59,780 bases of DNA. Origin: an uncultured Holosporaceae bacterium (lineage in GTDB: Bacteria; Pseudomonadota; Alphaproteobacteria; UBA3830). This document shows positions 36,364 through 54,707 of the stretch, piece by piece. Position numbers and translations under genes: made by a program. Under the pieces are notes generated by a model. It had not been told where the DNA came from. It did not search any database and worked only from the letters and a program-made list of their open reading frames with translations. Within the stretch, counting starts at the first letter, position 1, and every line of letters begins with the position of its first letter. The stretch is from positions 1-59,780 of the forward strand of contig CAZEAT010000001.1 of the NCBI GenBank assembly GCA_964510175.1, given 5' to 3'.

Positions 36364-38385
36364 ATGGCAAACAAACCAATTAGTACGCTCCCGGAGGCGA
36401 CGAGTATTCCGGACGGTTCAGTAATGGCTATGGTAATGGGTGACGGAACCGGGACAAAACAGGTGACAAAAGAGCTTATGAAACAGGAGTTCGGAGGCTC
36501 TGATCCTGAAAATATGATTGCTACCACAGAAAAGGCAGGAACCGTGAAGCCTGACGGAAAAACCATTGTTGTTGAGGAGGACGGCACGATCAGGTGTGAG
36601 GGTACAGCAGAGGGAAATTCCGGAATCAAACTTGCCAACCCGTCAAATGTCAGTATCACCAATTTTGACCAGGCAGCAAAGATTACCTGGACTGATCCGG
36701 AGGATGTTGTTTATGAGGGTGCAAGACTGGCAACATGGCAAGGAACGGTCATTGTCAGGAAAGAGGGTGGGACGCCCCAGGACTGGACGGACGGCGTTCT
36801 CATTGAGAGGGTGGAGGAAAAGAACAAATACAAAGACACACCGCTCATTGACGGCAATCTGACAAACGGAGTTGAATACTGCTATGGTATTTTCCCTTAT
36901 TCAGATCAGATTGTTTATAACTACGATTTTACACAGTCTTTTGTTCCGGAAGAAATACGTCCGGAAATTCCGGTAATCGCAAGTGCAAAAGGCTCCGATG
37001 AAGCCGTTACTCTGGAGATTGAGAGTGCAACGGAGGATGCCCTGGTTAAAGTCGTGTATAAAGCCGGATCGGCTCCTACCAGTGGAACGGACGGCATTAT
37101 CATTGACGGTTTATCCGGAGGAGAGGTTGTTATTGACGGGCTTACAAACCTGACGGAATATTTCTTTGTTGCCTATGCTTATACAAACCTCAGAACATCC
37201 TCTGCATCCGAGGCAGTTTCGGTGACACCCAGGGCATATACGCTCCTGGGATTCAGGATGAAAAAATCAGAGAGCGATCCGGAAACAAAGGTAGAATATA
37301 CAGAGGGAGCCGTTGGCCTTACTCCAGCAAGTGTGAATCTCACCACAGGAGTATTTGACTACGGCTCTTTTGCAAATTTCTGGTTTGTCAAAGACAACAA
37401 GCCGGTCATGCTGAATAATGACGGTACAGAGGCGTATGAGCTTGATCCTGATGATTACACAAAGAAGAAAGACGGTACGGCTTCCGATGTGGCGAATAGC
37501 TCTTTTGCTGGTAACGCAATGAGCAGGATTCCGAAAGTATATCTGAAAATGTGGGAGGCAGACGGGTACGAGTATTGCAACATATGTGATGTGAAACTGG
37601 ATGATGATTACCACGCATACGCTCATACCAGGGCAGACGGTTCAGAAATGGACTATCTGTATCTTTCTATGTTTGAGGGCTCTCTTGTGGCAAATAAAGT
37701 CCGGTCAATCAAAGGGCTCAATCCGATGAACACCCAGACCGGTTCAAATGAGCTGACCTATGCAAAGGCAAACGGTTCCGGATGGAGTACCCGGTCATGG
37801 TCCCAGAGAAACCTTATCAATATGTTGTTGATCCTGATGGGTAAGACCACCAACACACAGGAGGCTTTCGGTTATGGATATTATACGGGAGGCACATCCA
37901 GCGCACCGAACTACCTGACAACTGGTGGGGCATCCAATAAAGGCCAGTTCTACGGAACAAACAAGACCAGGGACTATGTAAAGGTGTTCCATATTGAAAA
38001 CTGGTGGGGTGACGTATGGGAGAGAATAGAGGGATGTGTGACGAATAGCAGCGTCCGGATTCTGGTAAAGAGTACAGCTCCATACAATACCACAGGAGCC
38101 GGGTATGTAGATACTGGAGTCACTCCTGGAGGAACATCTGGAGGATATATCAGTGCTTGTAAAATGACAGCACATGGGCTGGTACCTATGACTGCATCCG
38201 GAAGCGAAACCACACAGTACCCGGACGGCTTATGGTTTGCGAAAGACTGTTATGCGCTCGTCGGCGGCTCCTCCGCCTATGCGCTTCCTGTGGGCGCTTT
38301 GGCGTTGACTGTGTCCGATGCGCTGTCGGTTTCCAACTGGCACATCGGGGCGGCCCTTTCTTGCGAACAGCCTTTAGCGGCGTAG
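36364..38385 (+). CDS. tail fibre / receptor-binding protein; DGR target gene
   Basis: 673 aa with an FN3-like segment. The C-terminal ~34 codons form the VR matching the downstream TR. Confidence 0.85.
   Translation: MANKPISTLPEATSIPDGSVMAMVMGDGTGTKQVTKELMKQEFGGSDPENMIATTEKAGTVKPDGKTIVVEEDGTIRCEGTAEGNSGIKLANPSNVSITNFDQAAKITWTDPEDVVYEGARLATWQGTVIVRKEGGTPQDWTDGVLIERVEEKNKYKDTPLIDGNLTNGVEYCYGIFPYSDQIVYNYDFTQSFVPEEIRPEIPVIASAKGSDEAVTLEIESATEDALVKVVYKAGSAPTSGTDGIIIDGLSGGEVVIDGLTNLTEYFFVAYAYTNLRTSSASEAVSVTPRAYTLLGFRMKKSESDPETKVEYTEGAVGLTPASVNLTTGVFDYGSFANFWFVKDNKPVMLNNDGTEAYELDPDDYTKKKDGTASDVANSSFAGNAMSRIPKVYLKMWEADGYEYCNICDVKLDDDYHAYAHTRADGSEMDYLYLSMFEGSLVANKVRSIKGLNPMNTQTGSNELTYAKANGSGWSTRSWSQRNLINMLLILMGKTTNTQEAFGYGYYTGGTSSAPNYLTTGGASNKGQFYGTNKTRDYVKVFHIENWWGDVWERIEGCVTNSSVRILVKSTAPYNTTGAGYVDTGVTPGGTSGGYISACKMTAHGLVPMTASGSETTQYPDGLWFAKDCYALVGGSSAYALPVGALALTVSDALSVSNWHIGAALSCEQPLAA
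38253..38355 (+). repeat. DGR variable region (VR)
   Basis: Gap-free 103-nt alignment to 38518-38620; the 13 differences are all at TR adenines. Confidence 0.9.
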
Positions 38386-38449
38386 CCGCATAGGGGGACC
38401 GGGGGACACTCCCCCGGATAACTTTCAGCAAGAAAAAGAGTAGATTTTA

Positions 38450-38484
38450 TTCAGGAATCGTGGTTGCGGTTCCTGAAATTTTTT
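38450..38484 (+). terminator. rho-independent terminator after the tail fibre gene, just upstream of TR
   Basis: TTCAGGAA (38450-38457) pairs with TTCCTGAA (38470-38477), followed by ATTTTTT. Confidence 0.65.
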
Positions 38485-38517
38485 AGGGGAAATGGTGTCT
38501 GTCCTTGCCTCGTTCCG

Positions 38518-38620
38518 TGCGCTCGTCGGCGGCAACTCCAACAATGCGCTTCATGTGGGCGCTTTGGCGTTGAATGTGAACAATGCGCTGTCGAATTCCA
38601 ACTGGAACATCGGGGCGGCC
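38518..38620 (+). repeat. DGR template region (TR)
   Basis: Non-coding copy of VR, rich in AAC/AAT codons when read in the fibre frame. Confidence 0.9.
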
Positions 38621-38777
38621 TAATTCTTATAGAATCGGAAGATTAACCAAAGACACTGTTTTCCTACACCGCAGGCGGTTGAAATACCGCTAACCAGTGG
38701 AAATGAAACCGATAAAAGGCATGGTTTAGTAAGCAGAAATGCCCAGGAACCATGAGGTAATAAGAAAGAGAGAAAAC

Positions 38778-39041
38778 ATGAGAAGTTTTCGTATCAGCCA
38801 GAATGATATGCTGTCACATGACAGTATAGAAAAATCGTTCCTGGTACCCTCCCGTGGAAAGAGGAGCAGACCGGACGTGAAAGCCGTTCTTGACAACCTG
38901 GAAAATGAAATCCGGATAGTTCAGGAAATGCTCCTGAATGGAGAATTTACGCCTACCGATCATGAGGCAGTAAAAATCAATGAAAGGAATTACCAGAAAG
39001 TCCGGAAAATTGTAAAACCGACTATAAATATGAGCAGGTGA
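38778..39041 (+). CDS. DGR reverse transcriptase, N-terminal fragment (frame-shifted relative to the core)
   Basis: ..SRGKRSRPDVKAVLDNLENEIRIVQEMLLNGEF..KVRKIVKP is the typical N-terminal region of DGR-type RTs. It stops at 39039-39041. Confidence 0.7.
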   Translation: MRSFRISQNDMLSHDSIEKSFLVPSRGKRSRPDVKAVLDNLENEIRIVQEMLLNGEFTPTDHEAVKINERNYQKVRKIVKPTINMSR

Positions 39042-40141
39042 TCCACCACGTTGTTGTCCAGGCAATACGGCCTGGAATAGAAACCGGGATGTATCAATAT
39101 GTTTTAGGTTCCATACCAGGCAGAGGCCAGCACATGGGAGCAAAGCGGATTGAGAAATGGATAAGGACAGACCCGGCAAATACAAAGTATGTTCTGAAAA
39201 TGGATATACGACATTTCTTTGAAAGCGTGGATCATGATATTTTGAAAGCCTGGCTCAAAAAGAAATTCCGGGATGCTTTTGTCCTGGATTTGCTATTCCT
39301 GATAATTGATGCCATTGATACGGGACTACCGCTCGGCTATTATACAAGCCAGTGGTTCGCTAATTTTCTTTTACAACCTTTAGACCACTACATCAAGGAA
39401 AATCTAAATGTGAAATACGATGGTAGGTACATGGATGATATAACTTGCTTTGGTCGAAACAAGAAAGAGCTGCATAGGGTCCGGGAGGCAATAAACTCCT
39501 ACCTGAATGAAGAATTGCATCTCACTATGAAAGGGAATTGGCAGATATTCCGGTTTGAGTACGAAGTGGAAGAATACGCCATAGAGTGTCAGACCATGAG
39601 GGAGCTGAAAGCTCTGGAGGACGATCTGGTAAAAGCAAGAATTAGGCATAAAATGAAAACTCACAAAAACCGCTGGAAAATATTTATTAAGGTGGCGAGT
39701 GTGAGGAGTAAAACAGATAAGCTGGAGCGGCTCCTGACAAAATACCGGGGAAAGAGTGAGATACTCACGATGGTATACGGCAGACCGCTTGATTTTATGG
39801 GCTTTGAATTTCATAGAAACAGAACGATCATGAGGAAAGGTATCATGATCCGTTTGAACAGAAAAGCGAAGCAGGTGTCTAAGCAGGAGAAAATCAATCC
39901 GAAAGATGCCGCTTCGCTTTTGTCCTCTATGGGATGGGTGAAACATACGGACACATACGGGATGTATGAGGAGCGTATCAAGCCTATTGTCAATATAAAG
40001 AAGCTGAAAAAGATTGTCAGCAAAAACCAGAAACGTAAGAACCAGGAGGAAAAGGATAAGCAAAGGAGGCAGGAAAAGGAAAATGGAAATCAGGTGGAAA
40101 ACAGTAACGGGATCACAGGAGGAACGCCCGGAAGTGATTGA
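39038..40141 (+). CDS. DGR reverse transcriptase, core (motifs 1-7, YMDD)
   Basis: VIHHVVVQAI, MDIRHFFESVDH, GLPLGYYTSQWFANF and GRYMDDITCFG motifs; very basic C-terminal tail. Confidence 0.85.
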   Translation: MIHHVVVQAIRPGIETGMYQYVLGSIPGRGQHMGAKRIEKWIRTDPANTKYVLKMDIRHFFESVDHDILKAWLKKKFRDAFVLDLLFLIIDAIDTGLPLGYYTSQWFANFLLQPLDHYIKENLNVKYDGRYMDDITCFGRNKKELHRVREAINSYLNEELHLTMKGNWQIFRFEYEVEEYAIECQTMRELKALEDDLVKARIRHKMKTHKNRWKIFIKVASVRSKTDKLERLLTKYRGKSEILTMVYGRPLDFMGFEFHRNRTIMRKGIMIRLNRKAKQVSKQEKINPKDAASLLSSMGWVKHTDTYGMYEERIKPIVNIKKLKKIVSKNQKRKNQEEKDKQRRQEKENGNQVENSNGITGGTPGSD

Positions 40142-40433
40142 CAAGACTTCCAGCGGAAAATATGTGTATCTCCGCAGGAACATTGAGAGGATCACCAAAG
40201 AGGACACCCAGGGAGAACAACCGGTACAGCTCTGGAAATATGAGGAGGCGGCAGTTCTTCAGGAGGAATATGCACAGTATGACACAGTTGTTATGGAAAT
40301 CGTCCGGGCAGAATTAAGTGATTTTGCGAGTGTTCAGGCAGAACAGACCGCAATCATGCAAGCAAACATTGAGTATGTTCAGGCAAATATGGAATATATC
40401 GCTATGATGGCAGATGTTGATCTGGAGGTGTAA
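40083..40433 (+). CDS. hypothetical acidic protein in the XkdW position
   Basis: 116 aa from ATG 40083; precedes the XkdX-like gene. Confidence 0.45.
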   Translation: MEIRWKTVTGSQEERPEVIDKTSSGKYVYLRRNIERITKEDTQGEQPVQLWKYEEAAVLQEEYAQYDTVVMEIVRAELSDFASVQAEQTAIMQANIEYVQANMEYIAMMADVDLEV

Positions 40434-40436: not shown

Positions 40437-40592
40437 ATGGAACACAGTAAGAATTTTCAAAAGGTAAAAGGCTACTATGACAAGGGGCTCTGGAGCGAAC
40501 AGAAAGTAAGAAATGCAGTAACAAGTCCGGCATCTAACCCCTGGATAACCAAAGAGGAGTATGAGGAAATCACAGGTGAGGCTTATGAGTAA
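40437..40592 (+). CDS. XkdX-family small phage protein (51 aa)
   Basis: ..KVKGYYDKGLWSEQKVRNAV..WITKEEYEEITG.. is the XkdX signature. Under 60 aa, so absent from the ORF track. Confidence 0.65.
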   Translation: MEHSKNFQKVKGYYDKGLWSEQKVRNAVTSPASNPWITKEEYEEITGEAYE

Positions 40593-41559: not shown

Positions 41560-43125
41560 ATGAACGAACAGAAAATATTTGACTTTTTCACCAGTAAAGG
41601 TTTTACTCCTGCCGGCATTTATGGGATGTTGGGTAATATCAAAGACGAGAGCGGCGGCAATCCCCGGAACCTCCAGAACAGTTATGAGAAAAAGCTGGGG
41701 TACACGGATGATTCCTACACGGAGTCCGTTGATTCCGGAGCTTATACCAATTTTGTCCATGATGCCGCAGGTTACGGCCTGGCACAGTGGACGTATTCTA
41801 CCAGGAAAGAAAATCTTCTGAAATACGCCCGGTACAAAGGGGAATCAATCGGGAGTTTTGATATGCAGCTTGCTTTCATGTATCAGGAATTACAGGGCTA
41901 CAAGGCTTTGTTTGCAATCCTGAAAACCACAAACTCTATCCGGGAGGCATCCGACGCCTTTATGACGCAGTACGAGAAACCGGCAGACCAGAGCGAGAAC
42001 GCAAAGAAGCGCCGGGCATCCTACGGCGAAGAGATATGCGCAATGCTCACCGGCGTAGAAAATGATTCAGTGGTATACATTACCGAAGCAGAGATACGGC
42101 AGAAAATAATTTCCGTTGCCGTTGGCTGGTACGGACGGAAAGAGGCTGACGGTTCCCACAAGTTTATCATTGACTTATATAACAGTCATACTCCGCTTGC
42201 CAGAGGCTACAAGGTCAAGTATACGGATGCCTGGTGCGCAACCTTTGGTTCTGCAGCAGCTATCGCCGCAGGACTTACAGATATTATTCCTACGGAGTGT
42301 GGATGCGGACAGATGATAGCCGCTTTCCAGGCTATGAATCGTTGGGTGGAGAATGATGCTTACATCCCGTCTCCGGGAGACTATATTTTCTATGATTGGG
42401 ATGATACCGGAGCTGGTGACTGCACAGGCTGGCCGGAGCATGTGGGAATTGTTATTTCTGTATTCGATAATGTGATTAAGGTTATCGAGGGCAATAAGGA
42501 TGATGCAGTCGGGTATCGTGAAATCAAAGTAAATGGCCGTTACATCCGGGGCTATGGTGTTCCTGATTATGCGGCAAAAGCCGGAACGGAACCGCATAAA
42601 ACCGGATCAAATGGCGGCAAAACTGAATCAGAACCGGTAAAAACCGGAACATCCGGAAGCCTCTGCATGGCTCCACAGTGGGTAGGAAAAATCACCGGTG
42701 ATGATCTGAACGTCCGGAAGTGGGCTGGTACCGAGTATGACAATATAAAGAGCTGGCCGAAACTTTCAAAGGGGAACCTGGTGGACGTATGCGACAGCGT
42801 AAAGGCAAAGGACGGCTCCACCTGGTATTACATCCGGATAGATGGTCGCATTTATGGCTTTGTTCATGCGGACTACGTTACCAGATCAGACAATGGTACG
42901 GCTACCGGTGGTAGAAATATTTCCATAGGTGAGGAGGTAAATTTCACAGGTAGCACTCATTATACCAGTTCAGGAGGAAATGCAAACGGGAAGCGGTGTA
43001 AATCCGGACGTGCAAAAGTGACCGCAGTAAACATGAGCGGTGTACATCAATATCACATTGTAGCAGTTCCGGGAGGCGGTTCTACTGTTTATGGATGGGT
43101 GGATGCTTCCGACATTTCCTCATAA
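41560..43125 (+). CDS. endolysin: lysozyme-like N-domain + CHAP + SH3-like repeats
   Basis: N-terminal GMLGNIKDESGGNP..GYGLAQWT (phage tail-lysozyme-like). CHAP segment (DAWCATFGS..WPEHVGIV). C-terminal repeated ..W..I..G..YG(F/W)V modules. Confidence 0.8.
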   Translation: MNEQKIFDFFTSKGFTPAGIYGMLGNIKDESGGNPRNLQNSYEKKLGYTDDSYTESVDSGAYTNFVHDAAGYGLAQWTYSTRKENLLKYARYKGESIGSFDMQLAFMYQELQGYKALFAILKTTNSIREASDAFMTQYEKPADQSENAKKRRASYGEEICAMLTGVENDSVVYITEAEIRQKIISVAVGWYGRKEADGSHKFIIDLYNSHTPLARGYKVKYTDAWCATFGSAAAIAAGLTDIIPTECGCGQMIAAFQAMNRWVENDAYIPSPGDYIFYDWDDTGAGDCTGWPEHVGIVISVFDNVIKVIEGNKDDAVGYREIKVNGRYIRGYGVPDYAAKAGTEPHKTGSNGGKTESEPVKTGTSGSLCMAPQWVGKITGDDLNVRKWAGTEYDNIKSWPKLSKGNLVDVCDSVKAKDGSTWYYIRIDGRIYGFVHADYVTRSDNGTATGGRNISIGEEVNFTGSTHYTSSGGNANGKRCKSGRAKVTAVNMSGVHQYHIVAVPGGGSTVYGWVDASDISS

Positions 43126-43991: not shown

Positions 43992-44032
43992 TTTCCCATT
44001 GAAAAAATTTTTTAAGAAAAGCAAAAATAGGC

Positions 44033-44062
44033 TTGACGTAACGCACTGTAGTGCGCTAAAGT
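44033..44062 (+). promoter_or_regulatory. promoter P4 of accessory operon 1
   Basis: TTGACG (44033-44038), 18 nt, TAAAGT (44057-44062). Part of the ~98-nt cassette duplicated at 50827-50925. Confidence 0.55.
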
Positions 44063-44115
44063 ATAGCCATGGAACACACCAAAGGAAAGTGAACACACGA
44101 AACGGGAGGTATATC

Positions 44116-45120
44116 ATGAAATATTTTAAGAATGTAAAGAGCTTTGAGGATTTAAAAAATCAGTTTAGAGAGTTGGCAAGAAAAAATCATCCGGACGCTG
44201 GCGGCGATCCTGAAATAATGAAAGCAATCAATCAAGAGTACGATCAGTTATTTCCGGTTTGGAAGAAACGCCATAACATGTCAACGGGAGAGTCCACAAC
44301 CGAAACAGCAGATACCTTTAGAAATGAGTTTTATACACAAAACGGCTGGAAAGGCAGCAACCATGACTGGAACCGCAGTTTGAAAGAAGTCGCACAGATT
44401 GTCAGAACATATGTTAAGGAGCAGTACCCCACATATAAATTCAGTGTTCGTACAGAATACGCTTCTATGTGCCAGGAACTCCATGTTGATTTAAAAGAAA
44501 GCCCTATCGAAATTTATAAGACTTTCGAGGAGCTTACAGATGATGATAAGCACCGCTTAATTAGCAAAATGGATCATAACTGGTTGTTCAAACTTACATC
44601 GTGGAATGACAGCGAATTGAAAGCAGAGTTTGAACGGATATGGAATGAGAACGGCAATTTTTATAAATGCCTGAATGAAGCCACACAGGCGGTTATCGAG
44701 GATGTAGATGCTTTCGTAAAGTCCTACAATTACGAAGATTGCGACGGTATGATTGATTACTTCCATGTTGATTTTTACTACTTCGGATGCGCACAGAATA
44801 ACGGGAGAAACATCAAAGTTGTTCCCAAAACTGCCAGAATCAAAAATAAACCAGAAGTAACAGCGCCGGCCACCACAAAGGAAGATAAAACCAGTAATGA
44901 AAAGGTAGAGGTTGCTGAAATCGAGCAGGAGTATGAAATCAAAGAAACTAAGCATACAAAAACCAATGAAGTGATCTTTGTGGTAAAGATTGTTCGCACA
45001 CTCACCAGAGAGGAATATAAAAAGGTTGCTGAAAAAATGAACCAGCTTGGAGGGTATTACTCAAAATTTGTTCATGGATTTGTGTTTAAAGAAAATCCGA
45101 CACCATTGTTGGTTTCATAG
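44116..45120 (+). CDS. J-domain (DnaJ-like) protein with a large uncharacterised C-terminal region
   Basis: J-domain with HPD motif (FEDLKNQFRELARKNHPDAGGDPEIMKAINQEYDQL). ATG 44116 after GGGAGG. Confidence 0.7.
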   Translation: MKYFKNVKSFEDLKNQFRELARKNHPDAGGDPEIMKAINQEYDQLFPVWKKRHNMSTGESTTETADTFRNEFYTQNGWKGSNHDWNRSLKEVAQIVRTYVKEQYPTYKFSVRTEYASMCQELHVDLKESPIEIYKTFEELTDDDKHRLISKMDHNWLFKLTSWNDSELKAEFERIWNENGNFYKCLNEATQAVIEDVDAFVKSYNYEDCDGMIDYFHVDFYYFGCAQNNGRNIKVVPKTARIKNKPEVTAPATTKEDKTSNEKVEVAEIEQEYEIKETKHTKTNEVIFVVKIVRTLTREEYKKVAEKMNQLGGYYSKFVHGFVFKENPTPLLVS

Positions 45121-45193
45121 GAGTAAGAGAGCTTGCTGGATTGATAACAACGCCGACCGGAGGCGGCTGACCTCCGGAGAGAGTGAGGAGAAT

Positions 45194-45550
45194 ATGCAGA
45201 CAATAAAGAGCGGAGAGCATGTATTTGAGTTAGTTGACAAGGTTCCCTATGGTTACATGATCTGGAATATCGGGAAAAATATGGTTGATGGCTACCTTCC
45301 TTTATGCAGACTGAAAGCGGTTCAACCTTTTCCGGGAGGCAGAGATATTGAGGTTGATACTCTGAAAGCAATTAAGGTTGAGGGAGCGCAGATTATCCTT
45401 GATGCAGTCGGAGGAGGACAGAACACGCCGGAGCAGATGGAAGCCTATATAAAGAGATACAGAAACGCAAAACCGGGTACATGGTCATACAGACAGGTTC
45501 AGAGGATGAAAGCGGCGCTTCCGATTATGCGGCAAATTGCGTGGAGCTGA
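45194..45550 (+). CDS. hypothetical protein
   Basis: ATG after GAGGAG; 118 aa. Confidence 0.45.
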   Translation: MQTIKSGEHVFELVDKVPYGYMIWNIGKNMVDGYLPLCRLKAVQPFPGGRDIEVDTLKAIKVEGAQIILDAVGGGQNTPEQMEAYIKRYRNAKPGTWSYRQVQRMKAALPIMRQIAWS

Positions 45551-45579
45551 ATTTTCAGTATAGAGGAGGAAAAGAGTTT

Positions 45580-45855
45580 ATGAGATTCAAACATACAGAG
45601 CAGACAGCAGCAATTTACAATTCCATGATAAAGGAGTACCGGGAAATACAGTCAGACAGTGATCTTGAACATGCTGGACTGTCATACGATGATTACCGCA
45701 GTTCGGATTTTGGTCTTTTCCTGGATATGCTCAGGTTTGATGGAAAGGGAGTTACATCATCCCGGAATGTAATGGAGTGGGCGAAACGTCACGGATGCGC
45801 CGTAACAGGAGAGGAAAATAACTGGAAAGTAAGTCTGGAGGAGGTAAAGGGATGA
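45580..45855 (+). CDS. hypothetical protein
   Basis: ATG after AGAGGAGGA; 91 aa. Confidence 0.45.
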   Translation: MRFKHTEQTAAIYNSMIKEYREIQSDSDLEHAGLSYDDYRSSDFGLFLDMLRFDGKGVTSSRNVMEWAKRHGCAVTGEENNWKVSLEEVKG

Positions 45856-46157
45856 AATTAGAAATTGAGGTAAAGCGGATTAGAAACAGTGTCACCCAGG
45901 GAGAGGCGGCGGTCTATGTAAACGGGGAAAAGGTAATTCAGTTCGGGGATGATATTCAGATGGTAAAGCCCGGACAGAAGTATTACGGTGAGAAAATCGG
46001 TAATTGGGCGAGTACGAAACCGGATGCGAATTTCATAAAAGGTCTGTTATATCATCCATTCGATGATATGTACCATTACAGCGACAAGGTAAAGGAAATT
46101 CTGGAGAAAAGCATAGAGGAGGACGGGCAGGTATGGGAAGAACCGGAGAAAATATAA
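45852..46157 (+). CDS. hypothetical protein
   Basis: ATGA overlap with the upstream gene. Confidence 0.45.
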   Translation: MKLEIEVKRIRNSVTQGEAAVYVNGEKVIQFGDDIQMVKPGQKYYGEKIGNWASTKPDANFIKGLLYHPFDDMYHYSDKVKEILEKSIEEDGQVWEEPEKI

Positions 46158-46183
46158 CTTGTAGCAAGGGAGTCCAGGAAGAA

Positions 46184-46396
46184 ATGCAAATCTTCCCGGA
46201 CTTTCGGGACTTTGTAACAAAATCTTACATGCGGTTCATTATGGGAGATTGGGGAGAGGTTGATCCGGAGGATGCAGAGCATAACCGGAAGAACCCAGGG
46301 GCGGCAATCGGAGCCTATACATACAATGGCGAAATCAAGATTTATATAAAAAGTGAGTTCCTGGGGACAACGGTATTTTTTCCGGACGAATATTAG
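46184..46396 (+). CDS. small GDWG-motif protein of a kind seen in plasmid/ICE leading regions (by recall)
   Basis: ..FIMGDWGEVDPEDAEHN..AIGAYTYNGEIKIYIKSE..TTVFFPDEY pattern. The family name is not recalled with certainty. Confidence 0.35.
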   Translation: MQIFPDFRDFVTKSYMRFIMGDWGEVDPEDAEHNRKNPGAAIGAYTYNGEIKIYIKSEFLGTTVFFPDEY

Positions 46397-46407
46397 GAGG
46401 GGATAAG

Positions 46408-46599
46408 GTGGTAAAACTGGCAGAGCATACATACGGCAGACATATCTATATGCGGATGATGCTGGACAATAAACGCATTGAGGAGATAGACGTTTACATC
46501 GGTCAAAACGGAGAAGAAACCTACAAAACGTCCGCTGATCCTGGGGGACACCTGGAAGTCAGGGAGCAGATAATAGATGCTTTTAAAAAATTATATTAG
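46408..46599 (+). CDS. hypothetical protein
   Basis: GTG start after AGGAGGGG. Confidence 0.4.
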   Translation: MVKLAEHTYGRHIYMRMMLDNKRIEEIDVYIGQNGEETYKTSADPGGHLEVREQIIDAFKKLY

Positions 46600-46621
46600 G
46601 CAAAGGGAGGCATAAATAAAA

Positions 46622-46954
46622 GTGAGGTATAAGATTCTTTACTGGAAGTGTAAAAAGAAGCTGAAAAAGCAGATGGAGGCAGTTTTCAGGCTAACAAAGG
46701 AAAGATGGGAAAACCGGAGTGAGATAAAACGCCTCCGGAAAATGGTTGCATCACTGGAGGATGGGTATGTGGTGGAGTGGTGCGACAACTGCAAAAACCA
46801 GATTGTTATGTTATGGAATCCTGGAAAAGACGGTCTTTTAGCATATTGTCCGGTGTGCGGAAGTGAAATGATGTTATGCGATTCGTGCCACTGGAAATGC
46901 GACTATGATTTCGGGAATGATGATTGCATCGGAAAGAGGTTCAGCGGAAAATGA
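46622..46954 (+). CDS. Cys-rich Zn-ribbon protein
   Basis: CDNCKN..CPVCGSEMMLCDSCHWKC. Start uncertain (GTG 46622 or ATG 46673). Confidence 0.45.
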   Translation: MRYKILYWKCKKKLKKQMEAVFRLTKERWENRSEIKRLRKMVASLEDGYVVEWCDNCKNQIVMLWNPGKDGLLAYCPVCGSEMMLCDSCHWKCDYDFGNDDCIGKRFSGK

Positions 46955-48303
46955 AAGGACAATTAAGTTTATTCAACGAGGAGTACATAAAGGATTCAGA
47001 CTGCACAAAAGAAACGCCGGTGATATATGGGAAGCCAGACGATCCGATCTATGGCACAGGTACCAGGATAACACCCAGATTAAAAGGCCGGGAAGATTCG
47101 GAACATATGAAAAATATTTTGCTTCCTGAATTGTTGCCGCTGGAGGAGTACGATCTGATTGCAATTTTGCTATCAGGAGGAAAAGACAGTATCGCATGTT
47201 ATTATAAGCTCCTGGAGCTTGGGGTGCCAAAGGAAAAAATGGAGTTCTGGCATCACGATATAGACGGAGGACATCCGAGCCGCCGTATGGACTGGCGATG
47301 TACACATAATTATGTTAAGTCTTTTTCGGAAGTGGAGGGAGTGCCACTTCGGTTATCCTGGAGGATAAACGGATTTTTCGGTGAGTTATATCGTGTTGGA
47401 GCATCGGAGCCGGTAGAATGGATGGAACCAGATACCGGAGAAATTATGCAATGCAAGCTATCTTCCAATTACCTGAAATGCAAGGAATTAAAAGAACAAA
47501 GTGCGGATGAAATGGAGGAGCTGTTAAAACAATACGGCTACCGCATGAAATTTCCTGCAAAGACGGGAGATTTGAGCCGTAGGTGGTGCAGTGCTTATCT
47601 GAAAATTATGGTTGCTGATTCCGTTATGAGTAATTTAAGCAGTCTGGGGAAACTGGAGGAAATCGGAGGGAAAAGGGGTAAGTTCCCGGCAAAGGGAAGC
47701 ACCCACCAGGGGCGTTGGTGCAGCGGAAACTTGAAAGCGGCGGTCCAGGACAGTGTAACATCGAATCTGGAAAAGACCAGGCAAAACGTAAAAGTCCTTG
47801 TTGTTTCCGGAGAACGTCGTGGAGAATCTGCCGGGAGATCAAAATATAATGAAATGGAGATTCACCGGACAAACGCAGAAAAGAAAGCGCACAGGATAGT
47901 GCATCAGTGGAGGCCGGTAATTGATTATTCAGAAAAGGATGTTTGGGAGGTTCTGAAAAGGCATAATGTGAATCCTCACCCTTGTTATCGGGCCGGATGG
48001 AACCGCTGTTCATGCGCTATGTGTATCTTCTCTACCCCGAAACTGTTTGCCGGAATAAAAGAGCTATATCCAGAAGATTTCGACTTATTAAAACAAGATG
48101 AATCAATTTTAGGCTTTACCCTGGATAACAAGTGCGACCTGGAAACATTCATAAAAGGGGCTGAATCGTGTGTATATCATGGCGATCTCCAGGCAATAAG
48201 GAGCCTTGTCACAGGGGAGTTTGCTGTTGATGATGTATATGTAAAGGGACGCTGGATGTACCAGGCAGGAGCTTTTCACGGGGCAGAGGGAGGCCCATGT
48301 TAG
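46951..48303 (+). CDS. PP-loop ATP pyrophosphatase of the PAPS-reductase/DndC-like family
   Basis: SGGKDS PP-loop (AILLSGGKDSIACYY). C-terminal WRPVIDYSEKDVW..CYRAGWNRCSCAMC. Internal 30-aa duplication. ATGA coupling to the upstream gene. Confidence 0.7.
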   Translation: MKGQLSLFNEEYIKDSDCTKETPVIYGKPDDPIYGTGTRITPRLKGREDSEHMKNILLPELLPLEEYDLIAILLSGGKDSIACYYKLLELGVPKEKMEFWHHDIDGGHPSRRMDWRCTHNYVKSFSEVEGVPLRLSWRINGFFGELYRVGASEPVEWMEPDTGEIMQCKLSSNYLKCKELKEQSADEMEELLKQYGYRMKFPAKTGDLSRRWCSAYLKIMVADSVMSNLSSLGKLEEIGGKRGKFPAKGSTHQGRWCSGNLKAAVQDSVTSNLEKTRQNVKVLVVSGERRGESAGRSKYNEMEIHRTNAEKKAHRIVHQWRPVIDYSEKDVWEVLKRHNVNPHPCYRAGWNRCSCAMCIFSTPKLFAGIKELYPEDFDLLKQDESILGFTLDNKCDLETFIKGAESCVYHGDLQAIRSLVTGEFAVDDVYVKGRWMYQAGAFHGAEGGPC

Positions 48304-48311
48304 GAGGAGAA

Positions 48312-49247
48312 ATGAAAATCGGGTTGCATGATGCAGAAAAAGAGGTATTTAAACACGGAAAGTCTTTTCCTAATTACGCATTGATGAAAATTGCCGCATA
48401 CCATAAATCGCAAGGGGATCATGTGGAGTGGTGGAATCCGTTGAAAAGGTATGACAAGGTTTACAGCAGCAAGGTATTCGATTTTACTCCGAATGATCCA
48501 TATTTGCCGGATAATGCGATCAGAGGAGGAACCGGCTATCTGGATTTGCCTGTCAATAATACGCTACCTGCAGAAATAGATAATATGTTTCCAGATTATA
48601 GCCTTTACCCAGAGTGCGATTACGCAATAGGCTATATCACGAGAGGGTGTCCTAATAAATGCCGGTGGTGCGTGGTTCCCAGGAAAGAGGGGAAAATCAG
48701 ACTGTACCGAACATGGAAAGACCTTGTAAGGCAAGATTCGGATAAGCTCGTGCTGATGGATAATAATATTTTGGCTTGTGAATATGGAATAGAGCAGTTA
48801 GAGGAGCTTTCGGGAAGCGGTTATCAGATTGACTTGAATCAGGGGATGGATGCTAGGCTGGTAAACGACCGGATAGCTGAAATTCTTTCACGGCTTAAAT
48901 GGATAAGATTTATACGCTTTAGTTGCGATCAAAAGAGCCAGATAGAGCCGATAAAAAATACGGTGGATTTACTCGGAAAATATGGAGTGAGGCCATACAG
49001 AATTTTTATATATATTCTCGTAACAAAGAATGTCCAGGACGCAGCGGATCGGGTGGAGGCTTTGAAAGGGTACAAAGCTATCAATCTTTATGCACAGGCT
49101 GAACGGAATGAAAGAATAGGAATTATTCCAAATTCTGAACAGTTGGAGTTCCAACAACGCTATGTTTACGGAGGTTGCTACCGAAAGGAAACCTGGGAGG
49201 AATACTGCCAGCGTAGAAAATTGGTTTTTCGGCAGGAGGGCTTATGA
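48312..49247 (+). CDS. radical SAM enzyme
   Basis: CX3CX2C cluster (GCPNKCRWCVV); SD AGGAGGAG. Confidence 0.7.
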   Translation: MKIGLHDAEKEVFKHGKSFPNYALMKIAAYHKSQGDHVEWWNPLKRYDKVYSSKVFDFTPNDPYLPDNAIRGGTGYLDLPVNNTLPAEIDNMFPDYSLYPECDYAIGYITRGCPNKCRWCVVPRKEGKIRLYRTWKDLVRQDSDKLVLMDNNILACEYGIEQLEELSGSGYQIDLNQGMDARLVNDRIAEILSRLKWIRFIRFSCDQKSQIEPIKNTVDLLGKYGVRPYRIFIYILVTKNVQDAADRVEALKGYKAINLYAQAERNERIGIIPNSEQLEFQQRYVYGGCYRKETWEEYCQRRKLVFRQEGL

Positions 49248-49633
49248 TACTTGACTGTTTAATTGTGAAAGAGAAGTGGCTGAACATGATACTTGACGGG
49301 TACAAGTCTCTGGAGATCAGGGGAGGCCGGACGCATAAAAGGGGACTTATCGGGCTGATCCAGAGCGGAACCGGGGAAGTAAAGGGGATTGCATCCCTGA
49401 CAGACTGCCAGGAGCTGAATAAAAAAGATTTTGAACGTCTCCAGGGATTCCACCAGATAAAAGACCGGGAGTGGGAGGAGCTTCCCTACAAAAAGGTTTA
49501 CGGGTGGAAATTGGAGGAGCGCAGGAGGTTGAAAACGCCGGTTAGATATAATCATCCCAGAGGGGCGGTAATTTGGGTAAAGGTTGATATTCCGGAGGAG
49601 GTATTGTATGGCAAAGAAAAATATGATAAATAA
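49244..49633 (+). CDS. ASCH-domain (PUA-like) protein
   Basis: IKEKWLNMILDGYKSLEIRGGRTHKRG..GWKLEE.. is typical of the ASCH beta-barrel. ATGA overlap with the upstream gene. Confidence 0.6.
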   Translation: MILDCLIVKEKWLNMILDGYKSLEIRGGRTHKRGLIGLIQSGTGEVKGIASLTDCQELNKKDFERLQGFHQIKDREWEELPYKKVYGWKLEERRRLKTPVRYNHPRGAVIWVKVDIPEEVLYGKEKYDK

Positions 49634-50390
49634 GAGCTGTGAAAATTGCGGATGCCTGAACAGAAATATATCAAAGAAAGGCCGGATAGAAAACAGGGAA
49701 TTATTGTATTATGGGTGCAGTAAGGCTTACGGGGGATTCTCAACAGCTTTTTCCCTGGATAATAAATGTGAGGGATGTTGCGGAGGCTGGGAGGCTACTA
49801 TGGAGGAAAAGGCGAAAAATGCTGGGATGTCAAAAGAGCTGGGAGCGGAAATACGAAAAAGCCTTGATCGGTGGGAGTATCTTCAAGTGCATGGAGGCTC
49901 TGATCCAAATTGGGAAGATGGCAGCAATATGAATCTGGTAAGAAATCATGTCTTTTACTGGAAAAGCCAGTGCAAGGCATTGTTGCTTCCAGAAGATTAT
50001 CCGGAGGAGTATTTTCTGGAAACTCCACCGGAGGTAGATAATAAATATATGGCTAGAGTTGAGGAAATCCGGGAAAGGTCAAAGAAAAGCCTGGAGGTAT
50101 ACAAAGCTGATTCTGATTACCAGTTTATTTTGCAGGCTGTAAACAGGCTTACAAAGCAGCAAAACGAACAGACACACGCAAGCTCTTTCCTCCGGTATGT
50201 TTCCGGTCTGGAGGATTCCATCCGGAATGATAGGTTGGTGGAAATGCGGAAACACGAAAACCCGGATCGTTATCTTGACAGCTTCCGGGAATGTCGAAAA
50301 CGAATAGAGGAAATTCTGGGTAAACCTGAACCGGAGCCGGTTCTTCCGATGGGTCAGTTGTCTTTATTTGATTTATACGGATTGACATGA
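49608..50390 (+). CDS. hypothetical protein with an N-terminal Cys cluster
   Basis: CENCGC..C..CEGCCGGW; ATG after GGAGGAGG. Confidence 0.45.
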   Translation: MAKKNMINKSCENCGCLNRNISKKGRIENRELLYYGCSKAYGGFSTAFSLDNKCEGCCGGWEATMEEKAKNAGMSKELGAEIRKSLDRWEYLQVHGGSDPNWEDGSNMNLVRNHVFYWKSQCKALLLPEDYPEEYFLETPPEVDNKYMARVEEIRERSKKSLEVYKADSDYQFILQAVNRLTKQQNEQTHASSFLRYVSGLEDSIRNDRLVEMRKHENPDRYLDSFRECRKRIEEILGKPEPEPVLPMGQLSLFDLYGLT

Positions 50391-50432
50391 TCCAGAAAAT
50401 AAGTTAGCATACGGGAAAAGGGAGGCGATTCT

Positions 50433-50759
50433 TTGAGAGCAGTAGATTTTATCGTGAAACACATAGAAGATCATGGAATGACACAGGCACAGGCGGCGGC
50501 AGTGGTCGGATGGAGCCGTCAAAATTTATGGGATAAGCTGAATAATCGGAACCCACGGTTTAATACCATGCTTCACATACTAACAGCTTTTGGATATGAG
50601 TTACATGTGGTGCGTAAGGATGGGCTATCACCGGATTGTTTTGACGAGAGAGATTTTTTTGAGGTGGCAAAAGAAAAAAATATATATTATGACGATCTGG
50701 AGGATTTAATTGCCGCCATGGGGCATAAGTTAATAATTGAGAAAAAGCCGGAAGAATAA
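50433..50759 (+). CDS. HTH (XRE-like) protein, last gene of accessory operon 1
   Basis: HTH (HGMTQAQAAAVVGWSRQNLWDKLNN); TTG start after GGGAGG. Confidence 0.55.
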   Translation: MRAVDFIVKHIEDHGMTQAQAAAVVGWSRQNLWDKLNNRNPRFNTMLHILTAFGYELHVVRKDGLSPDCFDERDFFEVAKEKNIYYDDLEDLIAAMGHKLIIEKKPEE

Positions 50760-50808
50760 GTTTTCCGGCTTATATTTTTTTGACGTCCTGGGAGGGCGTC
50801 TTTTTTTA
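50746..50808 (+). terminator. tandem rho-independent terminators
   Basis: AGCCGGAA pairs with TTCCGGCT (50746-50770), followed by a T-run. A second hairpin, GACGTCC..GGGCGTC (50782-50800), is followed by T7. Confidence 0.75.
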
Positions 50809-50841
50809 TTTTAAAATTTTTCAAAAAAAGCAAAAATAGGC

Positions 50842-50871
50842 TTGACGTAACGCACCGTAGTGCGCTAAAGT
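50842..50871 (+). promoter_or_regulatory. promoter P5 of accessory operon 2
   Basis: TTGACG (50842-50847), 18 nt, TAAAGT (50866-50871). Duplicate of the P4 cassette. Confidence 0.55.
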
Positions 50872-50925
50872 ATAGCCATGGAACACACCAAAGGAAAGCG
50901 AACACACGAAACGGGAGGTTATATT

Positions 50926-51132
50926 ATGATCGGGACATATGAAATTACAGGAGAATGGTTCGGAAGATTAGAGGAACTTGTAGAGGATATAGAGGAAAAG
51001 GGTTATGAGGTCTTAGAAGCAAACAGAGAATATGTTTCCTTTTCCGATCCAGAGGATGAAGATACAGAATACGTTGCTTATCTAGGTGGAACTGAAAAAA
51101 CAATCTACATTGACAGAATAGAGGAGGTATAA
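50926..51132 (+). CDS. hypothetical acidic protein
   Basis: ATG 50926 after GGGAGG, at the position equivalent to 44116 in the duplicated cassette. Confidence 0.45.
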   Translation: MIGTYEITGEWFGRLEELVEDIEEKGYEVLEANREYVSFSDPEDEDTEYVAYLGGTEKTIYIDRIEEV

Positions 51133-51136
51133 GGTT

Positions 51137-51736
51137 ATGATGATGTCAGAGTTTATCGAAAGAACAGGTTTTGAACCTACAGCAGAGGAGTACGAACAGA
51201 TCGAGGAGGCTTACTATGAGTTTTCCGGAGATAAAAATGCCTTTTGTAAAGACTTCCTGAAAAATAAGGGAGTGGAGAGGCTGATTCGTGGCAGAGCCTC
51301 CAAAATCGAGGAGCTGAAAAAAGAGCTGGAGGATATGGAGAAAAAGTTGGATGCAGAGAAGAAAGTCTCTGAAAAAGAAATAAATTCTTTAAAAGAGCAG
51401 CTTGACAAAGAACTTGAATGGAAGCCTTGCGAGGGCGGAACCACGATGGAGCAGAAAAGATATGAGGAGCTTGCTACCGCTTGGGGAACACGGGTTCTGA
51501 CAGAGCAGGAAGCAAAAGACCTGATTTATAGAGAGTTCGGATTTGCTCCGGAAAAGATACGGATCATCAATACTGTACACACCTACGAGGCAAACAAATA
51601 TCACCGGATGCGGAAAGCAAACGAGTACACCAGGAAACCGGTCTACAATGCTTCCGACTGGAACTATGTAAGGTTTGATTGCGCTGGATGGCAGTATGAA
51701 ATGGTAAATTGCAGCTTAGAGAGATATGAAAATTAA
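51137..51736 (+). CDS. hypothetical protein
   Basis: 199 aa with a central coiled coil. Confidence 0.45.
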   Translation: MMMSEFIERTGFEPTAEEYEQIEEAYYEFSGDKNAFCKDFLKNKGVERLIRGRASKIEELKKELEDMEKKLDAEKKVSEKEINSLKEQLDKELEWKPCEGGTTMEQKRYEELATAWGTRVLTEQEAKDLIYREFGFAPEKIRIINTVHTYEANKYHRMRKANEYTRKPVYNASDWNYVRFDCAGWQYEMVNCSLERYEN

Positions 51737-51754
51737 ATAAAGGAGGATGCAAGA

Positions 51755-52015
51755 ATGGCAGACAAAAAGGTTTCTATGACAGAGGATGATTTCAGGGGAT
51801 TGTGCAAGGCGGTATATCCGCTTTTGCACAAGGTTACGGAGGAGTTGAAAAAACACGATGTTCCGGATATGGCATCGGTTTCGCTTTCCAAAGATGGTTA
51901 TATCAATTTATCGGTATATGAAACGGGATGGAGCCTGATTCGGACAAGCGGAGAAAAAGAGGCAAGAATGAGGCACGACTACCAGGAGCCTATTTCTTTA
52001 GAGGAGGGTAAGTAA
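51755..52015 (+). CDS. hypothetical protein
   Basis: SD AAGGAGGA. Confidence 0.45.
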   Translation: MADKKVSMTEDDFRGLCKAVYPLLHKVTEELKKHDVPDMASVSLSKDGYINLSVYETGWSLIRTSGEKEARMRHDYQEPISLEEGK

Positions 52016-52016
52016 G

Positions 52017-52187
52017 ATGGCATACAGAGGAAACAAAAGGCTTAATGCTGAAATTGAACGCCAGATCAGCGCATGGAGCGGAACCGTCCACGGCCAGGCA
52101 ATCAAGAATATGTATGAAAACGGTTCTGAATATGAGGGGATCTGTGAGCTTATGGGTATTGACTATGAAGATTATGAGGAGGAATGA
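52017..52187 (+). CDS. hypothetical small protein (56 aa)
   Basis: ATG 52017 after GAGGAGGG; under 60 aa, so absent from the ORF track. Confidence 0.35.
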   Translation: MAYRGNKRLNAEIERQISAWSGTVHGQAIKNMYENGSEYEGICELMGIDYEDYEEE

Positions 52188-52189
52188 GT

Positions 52190-52570
52190 ATGGTTAAAAC
52201 AGTGAAAATCACATCAAAAAATACAATATTAGTTGTAGAGCTTCCGAACTGGAGCCTGGAGGATCAAGAACGGGAAATAGGAGCAGATTGCACCGAAACT
52301 GTAAAGACGCAGCGGATGTATGACCTTTTCAAAGATACAATCGTGATGATCGTGGACGAATCCGGCCTGATAAAGAACAGGCTTTCTAATCCAGTGGCAT
52401 CGTTCCTTTATGGTTCAGACTTACACGGCTCTATAATTGCCGGGGATGTTTTATTCGGGGTACAAAGAGGCCCGGACATTCTGCCTCCGGAAAATCCGGA
52501 GTTGCTGAAATTCTTTTTGCTGGATCATTTCCACGAACTCCGGGAGGTTCGGGGGGGTGAAAGCCTGTGA
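52190..52570 (+). CDS. DUF3846-like protein
   Basis: ..IVMIVDESGLIKNRLSNPVAS..GSIIAGDVLF.. pattern (by recall). Start is 52190 or 52184. Confidence 0.45.
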   Translation: MVKTVKITSKNTILVVELPNWSLEDQEREIGADCTETVKTQRMYDLFKDTIVMIVDESGLIKNRLSNPVASFLYGSDLHGSIIAGDVLFGVQRGPDILPPENPELLKFFLLDHFHELREVRGGESL

Positions 52571-52809
52571 AAAACAAATTGATTGACCTAAATAATCATC
52601 TTTTTGCAGAACTGGAGCGGCTTTCGGATGAAGATTTGACAGGAGAGGCGTTAGAGAAAGAAATCCAGAGGGCAAATGCGATATGCGGAGTATCAACGCA
52701 GATCATAGCAAATGGACAGCTTGCATTGAACGCCGAGAGATTGAAACAGAACGCTATTTCCGCAGATTTCAAAGTCCCGTCATTCCTGGAGGATAAAGGC
52801 GATGCGTGA
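52567..52809 (+). CDS. hypothetical protein
   Basis: GTG start overlaps the upstream stop (GTGA). Confidence 0.4.
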   Translation: MKNKLIDLNNHLFAELERLSDEDLTGEALEKEIQRANAICGVSTQIIANGQLALNAERLKQNAISADFKVPSFLEDKGDA

Positions 52810-53452
52810 TATTCATAATTGGACGGATGAAGAAAAAGAGTTCCTCCGCAGATACGTCCGGGATCACACCTGGAGGGAAACGGCAGAGGAGTTCAACCGG
52901 AAATTTGATTGTTCTCTATCCAGGGACGCAATCAAGGCGGCTGGTGACAGGTACGGGATCAGGACGGGGAGAAACGGGAGGTTTGAAAAAGGCAGCATCC
53001 CGGCGAATAAGGGGAAGAAAATGTCCGCAGATGCTTACAAGAAATGCGCTCCGACTATGTTCTACAAAGGACAGCCACCAACTAACCATAAGCCGGTAGG
53101 AACGATCAGCGTCCGGAACAACTACAAAAGAGGGACAAAATGTGTTTATGAAAAGGTGGCAGAGCCTAATGTTTGGAGGAGAAAATCCGTCCTGGAATGG
53201 GAAAGACACAACGGCCAGGTTCCTAAAGGCAAAATGATTATTTTTGCAGATGGTGATCCTCTGAATACAGATATTTCTAACCTGATGATGATAGACATGT
53301 CACAAAATGCGGTGATGAATCACCAGGGAATAAGGGGAACCGACAGGGAAAGCATGGAAGCCGCCGTAAACGTGGCCTCTATAAAGATAAAAATATCAGA
53401 GAGAAAGAGAGGAATAAAAAAGCATGGCAGTAATAAAAGAGCTGAACGCTGA
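52802..53452 (+). CDS. HNH endonuclease
   Basis: ..WERHNGQVPKGKMIIFADGDPLNTDISNLMMI.. is an HNH_3-type motif. Confidence 0.7.
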   Translation: MRDIHNWTDEEKEFLRRYVRDHTWRETAEEFNRKFDCSLSRDAIKAAGDRYGIRTGRNGRFEKGSIPANKGKKMSADAYKKCAPTMFYKGQPPTNHKPVGTISVRNNYKRGTKCVYEKVAEPNVWRRKSVLEWERHNGQVPKGKMIIFADGDPLNTDISNLMMIDMSQNAVMNHQGIRGTDRESMEAAVNVASIKIKISERKRGIKKHGSNKRAER

Positions 53453-54209: not shown

Positions 54210-54220
54210 GAGGAAAAGGG

Positions 54221-54466
54221 ATGGCACATAATTTGTATTGCGGAAATGGGAAATGCTCCGATTGCGGAAAAGATTGCCGTATTGATGAAGCTATTCCATG
54301 TTCTCCGGATTGTGAAAATCTGACCGTGGACGGAAAAATCAAGGTAAGGGAATGTCTGAAATCTGGATGTGATGAAATTAGGTACATCCTGGATATGGTC
54401 GGTAAGAGTGATTCTGAAATACTGGAGGAATACGGAGATATTACAGAGTACCCGTATAGCCTGTAA
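54221..54466 (+). CDS. Cys-rich small protein
   Basis: ATG after TAGGAGGAAAAGGG; CGNGKCSDCGKDC..CSPDC. Confidence 0.45.
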   Translation: MAHNLYCGNGKCSDCGKDCRIDEAIPCSPDCENLTVDGKIKVRECLKSGCDEIRYILDMVGKSDSEILEEYGDITEYPYSL

Positions 54467-54479
54467 GGAGGAGAGTATC

Positions 54480-54698: not shown

Positions 54699-54707
54699 GG
54701 GGGAAGC

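Follow-up and report, generated by a model that had tools for sequence, protein, structure and literature searches.

Described DGR Systems and the Locus in Question

Among the described diversity-generating retroelements (DGRs), the closest counterpart of the element considered here is that of Bordetella BPP-1 (mtd-avd-TR-brt). In this system, the target is a receptor-binding protein of the phage tail tip harboring a variable repeat (VR) in its C-terminal C-type-lectin (CLec) fold, and the template repeat (TR) follows the target and precedes the gene for the reverse transcriptase (RT; bRT in BPP-1). Its mutagenesis is adenine-specific, the adenines being placed in AAY codons; the VR/TR homology has a GC-rich end, followed by a GC-rich hairpin close to the stop codon or overlapping it, and RNA upstream of the TR pairs with RNA downstream of it to form a flanking duplex (“cPRT Stop”). 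Likenesses of all these features, as well as the (I/L)GxxxSQ motif of the RT, are found at positions 36,364 to 40,141 of the stretch of contig CAZEAT010000001.1 (assembly GCA_964510175.1) analyzed here, referred to below as the window (59,780 nt), and bRT is the top match of its RT by both sequence and fold. At the same time, BPP-1 possesses avd, whereas the element in the window is devoid of it, and the RT gene is frameshifted in the window copy, unlike that of BPP-1.

Another point of reference is the architecture A of Wu et al. (2018, PMC5758913), which embraces, e.g., DGRs of Firmicutes prophages. Like the element in the window, these DGRs comprise a TR–RT core with an upstream target, possess no avd, HRDC, MSL or CH1, carry the VR in a CLec-type C-terminus, and reside in prophages. 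According to the same survey, 29% of the curated DGRs are free of accessory genes, and in one RT lineage avd is missing throughout; the absence of Avd is hence a known DGR architecture. DGRs directed at tail proteins of prophages from gut Firmicutes are well documented (Wu et al. 2018, PMC5758913), and an example from Eubacterium rectale was already presented by Guo et al. (2011, PMC3240598).

The region in question very probably represents a DGR of the simple target/VR–TR–RT architecture, with neither Avd nor any other accessory gene, residing in a temperate siphovirus-type prophage. The same identity was proposed in a first-pass annotation made from the sequence alone; it is now supported by an adenine-only realignment of the repeats, the RT match, the fold of the target, and the variation in relatives, with further support from the GC-rich hairpins past the VR and from the covarying RNA structures around the TR. 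The core of the cassette upstream of the RT includes the following features:

36364-38385, + strand: target gene (open reading frame) encoding a distal tail protein of 673 aa, a putative receptor-binding protein, with a predicted C-type-lectin fold in approximately aa 276-673
38253-38355, + strand: variable repeat (VR), residues 631-664 of the target, with 11 diversifiable residues
38518-38620, + strand: template repeat (TR), non-coding, with 20 adenines

The Repeat Pair and Its Codon Design

Base-by-base comparison of the VR with the TR reveals a gapless direct repeat of 103 nt with an offset of 265 nt. All 13 mismatches fall on adenines of the TR (20 in total), and none of the 83 non-adenine positions is changed; if 13 mismatches were positioned at random, the probability of all of them landing on the 20 adenines would be ~7.2e-12. 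The first-pass annotation had described precisely such a pair (103 nt, gapless, 265 nt apart, 13 mismatches, each at a TR adenine), and the realignment reproduced it exactly, with differences at adenines alone. Its placement of the VR at the 3' end of the tail-fibre reading frame 36364-38385 holds as well, the VR being in frame there and encoding residues 631-664 of the 673.

Read in the fibre frame, 10 of the TR adenines occupy the first and 10 the second codon position, and the third position harbors none. The adenine-bearing codons comprise nine AAY, one CAT and one ATC, in line with the AAC/AAT/CAT design noticed at first pass. Since the 20 adenines are confined to the first two positions of AAY, CAT and ATC codons, 11 residues can be randomized (636, 638, 639, 642, 649, 651, 652, 656, 658, 660 and 661) and a stop codon is never reachable; the resulting repertoire amounts to 15^9 x 4 x 4, i.e., ~6.2e11 protein variants.

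The TR also has a T at 38597 that is private to the window (relatives have G), and a matching T is found in the VR at 38332. Therefore, information has passed between the TR and the VR in the lineage of the window, and the shared private base indicates that the transfer took place from TR to VR. No further VR was found in the window: a search with degenerate TR adenines, carried out with the full TR as well as with its 3' 40 nt, recovered only the known pair.

The Adjoining Reverse Transcriptase and Its Frameshift

DGR RTs carry the motif (I/L/V)GxxxSQ instead of the QGxxxSP of group II and retron RTs. In the window, the corresponding motif is LGYYTSQ, which aligns with IGSLTSQ of bRT. The RT also matches Pfam RVT_1 (E 1.4e-10), and the best sequence match of the reconstructed protein in the PDB is the Bordetella DGR RT (8ub7_A, E 5.6e-21), as compared with E 2.6e-12 for the group II intron RT GsI-IIC. 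The same structure is the best fold match (E 2.7e-15, TM-score 0.75) of the model built for P0001, an intact homologue 90% identical to the RT of the window. The comparison of the RT with the DGR, retron and group II types, proposed as a check on the initial reading, accordingly placed it closest to the Bordetella DGR enzyme by sequence and, through the 90%-identical homologue, by modelled fold as well. Both lines support the assignment of the adjoining enzyme to the DGR RTs.

The first-pass annotation had presented this RT as one gene at 38778-40141 with a YMDD box. The box (GRYMDDITCFG) is indeed present, but the single reading frame is not: the span amounts to 1364 nt, a length not divisible by 3, and the gene is broken in two, with an upstream part at 38739/38778-39041 (frame 0, ending at TGA 39039-39041) and a downstream part at 39038-40141 (frame 2). 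The features of the broken gene are as follows:

38778-39041, + strand: N-terminal RT fragment, 87 aa from ATG 38778, with the N-terminal extension, the fingertip Arg (RKIVKP) and the premature TGA resulting from the frameshift
39020, + strand: 1-nt deletion, the KPDY motif having lost a G of CCG|GAC
39020-40141, + strand: remainder of the RT in frame 2, with fingers, palm (LGYYTSQ, YMDD), an inserted domain of ~75 aa, thumb and a basic C-terminal tail

At the lesion, the window reads AAACC-GACTAT, one G being absent at 39020 in comparison with L024, L005, L001 and L002, four related loci (AAACCGGAC/AAACCAGAT); the intact versions are AAACCGGACTAT in L024 and L005 and AAACCAGATTAT in L001 and L002. 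The lesion resides inside the K80-P81-D-Y motif, whose K and P are invariant in the family alignment of 38 sequences, five residues past the Arg aligned with R74 of bRT, a fingertip residue contacting the incoming dNTP (Handa et al., bioRxiv 10.1101/2023.10.23.563531). More than 100 homologues of the RT are uninterrupted, measure ~440-470 aa, span the whole reconstructed protein, and begin with MRSFRI or MKSFRI. An intact RT frame, needed for a functional element, is therefore present in the homologues and absent from this copy. In the 7 kb aligned to L024 (91% identity), the RT lesion is the sole frame-breaking indel within a gene. Judging from the reading frames, the frameshift should abolish the RT of this copy; it bears on the activity of the copy and not on the kind of element to which it belongs.

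Two other interpretations of the broken gene were considered and ruled out. The reading frame 38739-39041 is not an Avd-like accessory gene, as it corresponds to the RT N-terminus in all homologues, and a programmed frameshift is not a conserved feature of this RT, as every homologue has an unbroken frame.

The RT family to which the window belongs (~454 aa) is larger than bRT (328 aa), differing from it in a ~75-aa insertion that separates palm from thumb and in a basic helix at the C-terminus. The insertion, located after KGNWQIFRFEY and ahead of GRPLDFMGFEF (39551-39778, residues ~259-334 of the reconstructed protein), is modelled as an alpha/beta domain with a pLDDT of ~93-95; it is found neither in bRT nor in the distant family members P0118 and P0120. 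The C-terminal tail (39989-40138) is rich in Lys, Arg and Glu (KKLKKIVSKNQKRKNQEEKDKQRRQEKENG...) and is modelled as a single long basic helix followed by disorder; it may bind nucleic acid.

The Target Protein

The target protein matches PHROG 5302, “tail protein”, with E 1.7e-82 across aa 276-670. It is encoded by the last gene of the tail module, behind those for the tape-measure protein, Dit and the Sipho_Gp37 protein, and presumably functions in receptor binding. Pfam detected no domain in it, including no match to FGE-sulfatase or DUF1566, which is why the fold was assigned by structure prediction. The AlphaFold2 model of the C-terminal 398 aa has a pLDDT of 93.9, and its top Foldseek matches in the PDB are the solved DGR variable proteins TaqVP of Thermus aquaticus (5vf4, E 2.7e-10), Mtd of Bordetella (1yu0-4) and TvpA of Treponema (2y3c), followed by enzymes resembling the formylglycine-generating enzyme (FGE). 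The model thus supports the CLec/FGE-like fold typical of DGR targets, which the target shares with these three proteins and which had been anticipated for the fibre C-terminus before any model was available. Sequence identity to TaqVP, TvpA and Mtd is 10-15%, and the TM-score over the whole 398-aa model is 0.3-0.47, a low value, since the N-terminal half of the modelled region differs.

Natural Variation in Related Loci

A scripted search covered ~48 related loci from prophages of Lachnospiraceae and Clostridia, and in nearly all of them an adenine-only, or nearly adenine-only, VR/TR pair resides just upstream of the RT. Five of these loci (L007-L011) share one identical TR and have five different VRs, which differ at A-templated positions alone. 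The non-A substitutions separating the TRs of different loci recur in each locus’s own VR.

The same pattern is seen in the target proteins. That of the window falls into a cluster of 181 sequences formed at 90% identity, 15 of which were compared along with 15 members of the sister cluster. In both clusters, the columns with at least four residue types are the 11 predicted residues, save for one extra such column in cluster 1 (which includes the protein of the window) and residue 661, for which cluster 2 has only three types. Residue 642 in cluster 1 is limited to H/P/R/L (CNT) and residue 661 to I/V/F/L (NTC). A reading of the listing of both clusters reveals no K, E, Q, M or W at the AAY sites, as NNY predicts. 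The expectation that polymorphism in related assemblies would be confined to A-templated residues is borne out by both the identical TRs with different VRs and the 11 hypervariable columns; by these comparisons, the DGR family appears visibly active in nature, diversifying at A-templated sites.

A departure from this pattern was noted in P0262 of cluster 2, which has Q at the CAT-templated residue 642, where adenine mutagenesis gives only H/L/P/R; either the TR of that lineage has another codon or a rare non-A change has occurred. The relatives are located in genomes of mouse-gut Lachnospiraceae and other Clostridia and in IMG/VR contigs. One VR variant (P0242) from the 90% cluster of the window target was found on 145 contigs, one of them 1.1 Mb long; hence, a close relative of the prophage in the window resides in a widely sequenced strain. 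A megablast search with the cassette against a phage collection yielded no match.

DNA Elements Downstream of the VR

The 3' end of the VR/TR homology and the sequence beyond it contain three candidate elements of the homing target site:

38344-38355, + strand: GC-rich 3' end of the VR/TR homology (ATCGGGGCGGCC), a candidate boundary resembling the initiation of mutagenic homing (IMH) site, with function by analogy with BPP-1 (PMC3240598)
38378-38390, + strand: hairpin 1, GCGGC-GTA-GCCGC, across the target stop codon; conserved, with stem covariation and a predicted DNA fold
38399-38417, + strand: hairpin 2, CCGGGGGA-CAC-TCCCCCGG, with an 8-bp GC-rich stem and a 3-nt loop; DNA fold z = -3.5, analogy to Guo et al. 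2011

The homology terminates in GGGGCGGCC, past which the flanks diverge into CTTTCTTGCGAACAGCC on the VR side, encoding the conserved LSCEQP, and TAATTCTTATAG on the TR side. The two hairpins lie 22 and 43 nt downstream of the VR, giving the site the GC-rich character of a DGR target site. The stem of hairpin 1 comprises 5-10 bp among the relatives (9-10 bp in some); hairpin 2 is also kept in relatives, with varying loops and some stem covariation. In BPP-1, a GC-rich hairpin/cruciform is required for homing, and such structures are common after phage VRs, their consensus loop being a GRNA tetraloop (Guo et al. 2011, PMC3240598). The loops in the window are of 3 nt (GTA and CAC), unlike this consensus and the tetraloops of BPP-1. 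By analogy, hairpin 2 is a candidate target-recognition hairpin or cruciform, and both hairpins may play roles in homing.

The closest relative among the viral contigs, L024 (95% RT identity), is devoid of hairpin 1 as a result of a 14-nt deletion at ~5005-5015, equivalent to 38376-38389 of the window. The deletion also removes two residues from the protein, and the VR of L024 is still diversified, with 12 A-site differences; from this sequence, hairpin 1 seems dispensable.

The Putative DGR RNA

Between the target gene and the RT, the following putative RNA features were recognized:

38450-38485, + strand: stem-loop and T-run resembling a terminator, past the target gene and ahead of the presumed start of the DGR RNA (consensus scan only)
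38486-38500, + strand: 5' arm of a 15-bp helix bracketing the TR (GGGGAAATGGTGTCT), pairing with 38651-38665 (covariation, minimum free energy (MFE) fold)
38651-38665, + strand: 3' arm of the bracketing helix (AGACACTGTTTTCCT) (covariation, MFE fold)
38665-38765, + strand: structured TR–RT spacer RNA, Rfam RT-4 motif (RF03025, covariation)

Over 17 loci, 94.5% of the cells of the bracketing helix are paired, a fraction inflated somewhat by the choice of the 5' arm as the best complement within 80 nt, and 10 of the 15 pairs covary, on which this choice has no effect; none of 500 shuffles was as good. The helix also appears in the MFE fold of the whole RNA. Its counterpart in the Bordetella DGR is the avd:Sp “cPRT Stop” duplex, which was observed by cryo-EM in the Bordetella ribonucleoprotein (Handa et al., bioRxiv 10.1101/2023.10.23.563531) and was previously surveyed only in Avd-containing DGRs.

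The spacer that follows matches RF03025 (RT-4) over the full length of the motif with 66.4 bits (E 1.2e-11), just below the Rfam gathering score of 73.5; the spacer of the related locus L025 (5892-5989) exceeds this score. Covariation-aware folding (alifold) of the spacers from 14 loci yields 24 pairs, 10 of them with compensatory changes. Between 38200 and 38900, the only Rfam matches are to RT-4 and RT-18, and no group II intron family is among them.

The RT-4, RT-17 and RT-18 motifs come from Weinberg et al. (2017, PMC5737381), where only RT-10, the motif of the BPP-1 spacer RNA, was tied to a DGR and the other RT motifs were the subject of speculation; in the present set of loci, the DGR context is explicit. 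Apart from RT-4, related DGR loci possess RT-18 (L016, 5912-5993; L045, 5904-5978) or RT-17 (L021, 5821-5912; L056, 2599-2698) as the same TR–RT spacer. These sequence matches imply that RT-4, RT-17 and RT-18 are lineage variants of the DGR spacer RNA. A literature search pairing “RT-4” with DGR found nothing.

The terminator-like stem-loop ahead of the helix suggests that the DGR RNA is either a separate transcript or a product of processed read-through. In the MFE fold, pairing is also seen between the 5' flank (38505-38517, CUUGCCUCGUUCC) and the 3' end (38603-38618, GGAACAUCGGGGCGG) of the TR, and, going by this model, it may be relevant to priming or initiation.

Proposed Course of Diversification

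By homology with BPP-1, a non-coding RNA would be transcribed from approximately 38486-38770, and the 15-bp helix formed by 38486-38500 and 38651-38665 would close the TR into a loop. The helix abuts the structured spacer with the RT-4 motif, which would bind and position the RT. The enzyme would then copy the TR into cDNA, misincorporating opposite adenines, and the cDNA would replace the VR at the 3' end of the tail-tip gene, being targeted via the GC-rich homology end and the hairpins just downstream. With 11 randomized residues displayed on a C-type-lectin ligand-binding domain, the phage could retarget its receptor-binding protein. We infer the transcript ends and the priming mechanism in the same manner. 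The Bordetella mechanism cannot apply here unchanged, because it requires Avd.

Competing Explanations and the State of This Copy

Several points weigh against the DGR reading or against the activity of this copy. No Avd/HRDC gene was found either beside the cassette or among the 20 other small reading frames of the window, and the distance from the target stop to the TR is just 133 nt. Nor was a sigma-70-like promoter recognized for the TR RNA. To these are added the selected 5' arm of the bracketing helix and the RT-4 score below the gathering score, both described above. Finally, the RT frame is broken within an invariant motif, and mutagenic homing by this copy is not to be assumed. An alternative that dispenses with a DGR altogether would place a retron, a group II intron or a defence-associated RT beside a chance tandem duplication of the fibre 3' end. 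It draws on weak NCBIfam matches of the RT to TIGR04416 (group II RT/maturase, 82.9 bits, cut-off 300), Drt3a (54.9 bits, cut-off 200) and retron St85 (53.5 bits, cut-off 235), but these all lie far below the family cut-offs and are expected for any prokaryotic RT. Moreover, bRT is the best match by sequence and fold, the adenine-only pattern (P ~7e-12) recurs in ~48 loci, and the Rfam matches around the TR are to RT-4 and RT-18, none to a group II intron family. A non-DGR RT is effectively refuted by this evidence and deserves hardly any credence.

Given a DGR, the question is whether the RT of this copy has recently been disabled or the contig contains a one-base error, and the two readings are graded roughly even. 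If the cassette is a decaying remnant, with a pseudogene for the RT and a fixed VR, it is now a fossil beside a conventional tail gene; we consider this an even chance. The frameshift in the invariant KPDY motif, cutting the N-terminal extension and the fingertip Arg off from the palm, speaks for it, whereas the lesion is single, the TR, the spacer RNA, the bracketing helix and the hairpins are all intact and close to the versions of the relatives, and no non-A drift separates TR from VR, which excludes long-term decay and leaves room at most for a very recent loss. A fully active DGR, to which we give slightly less than an even chance, would require that the G missing at 39020 be an assembly or sequencing error, or that -1 slippage of Lys-tRNA on A-AAA-C (39014-39018) still yield small amounts of full-length RT. 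It is favored by the repeats, where no non-adenine difference is found and the VR holds the lineage-specific base of the TR (any inactivation must hence be very recent), and also by the remaining RT frame, open and conserved, by the lack of any other frame-breaking intragenic indel in the 7 kb aligned to L024, and by the AAAA run directly upstream of the deletion. Against it, the deletion falls in a GG dinucleotide with no long homopolymer and is therefore not a typical sequencing error; no homologue has a conserved recoding site, all their frames being intact; and A-AAA-C does not form a canonical slippery heptamer, while slippage on it would also swap out the invariant Pro. Barring a sequencing error or rare ribosomal slippage, the element would be newly disabled, with the VR frozen in its last written state. 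Any loss of the RT would be very recent, as there is zero non-A drift between TR and VR and the RNA and DNA elements are intact.

Phage Context

The window represents a temperate phage of the siphovirus type, as a prophage or as a phage contig, and its host belongs to Lachnospiraceae. Markers of a temperate phage include a large serine recombinase (1302-3065, minus strand), a Rha regulator (566-1267), RecT (6447-7463) and RusA (12264-12713). The tail genes of the window encode the tape-measure protein, Dit and the Sipho_Gp37 tail protein and are followed by the target. After the cassette come XkdX (40437-40592) and an endolysin with lysozyme, CHAP and GW domains (41560-43125), so that the site assigned to the cassette at first pass, between the fibre gene and the XkdX/lysin block, is upheld. 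Neither a terminal repeat indicating a circular contig nor a tRNA was found in the window.

The reading frame at 40014-40433 was considered as an accessory gene and rejected: it has no Pfam or NCBIfam match, and its only counterpart is a PHROG of unknown function located ahead of XkdX in relatives. Past the lysis cassette, the block 43999-59780 contains LPD29/DnaJ-like, PAPS-reductase-like, ASCH, DUF3846 and D12 adenine-methyltransferase-like domains; it may comprise early or anti-defence genes of the phage or belong to a neighbouring element.

Implications for the DGR Family

Tentatively, and with chances we put somewhat below even, this prophage lineage may run an Avd-independent DGR of two components, the RT and the RNA. 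In such a system, the ~75-aa insertion and the basic C-terminal helix of the RT would replace Avd in positioning the template–primer duplex, a speculation as far as these two parts are concerned, whereas RT-4, RT-17 and RT-18 would serve as RNA scaffolds and the cPRT-Stop-like helix would be retained. If true, it would offer a more compact DGR chassis for directed evolution and a function for three orphan RNA families.

The current understanding of DGRs is not overturned by any of these points. Three modest additions are made to it: an Avd-less element that keeps the TR-bracketing stop duplex, surveyed before only in Avd-containing DGRs; the assignability of the orphan Rfam motif RT-4 (RT-17 or RT-18 in relatives) to the DGR TR–RT spacer; and the one-base break in the RT. 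The latter, with everything else pristine, reflects either an inactivation caught very soon after it occurred or a mistake in the assembly that deserves correction. Overall, the locus provides a well-supported DGR by which a temperate phage from mouse-gut Lachnospiraceae would retarget its receptor-binding protein, which is useful for annotation and for understanding the host range of gut phages.

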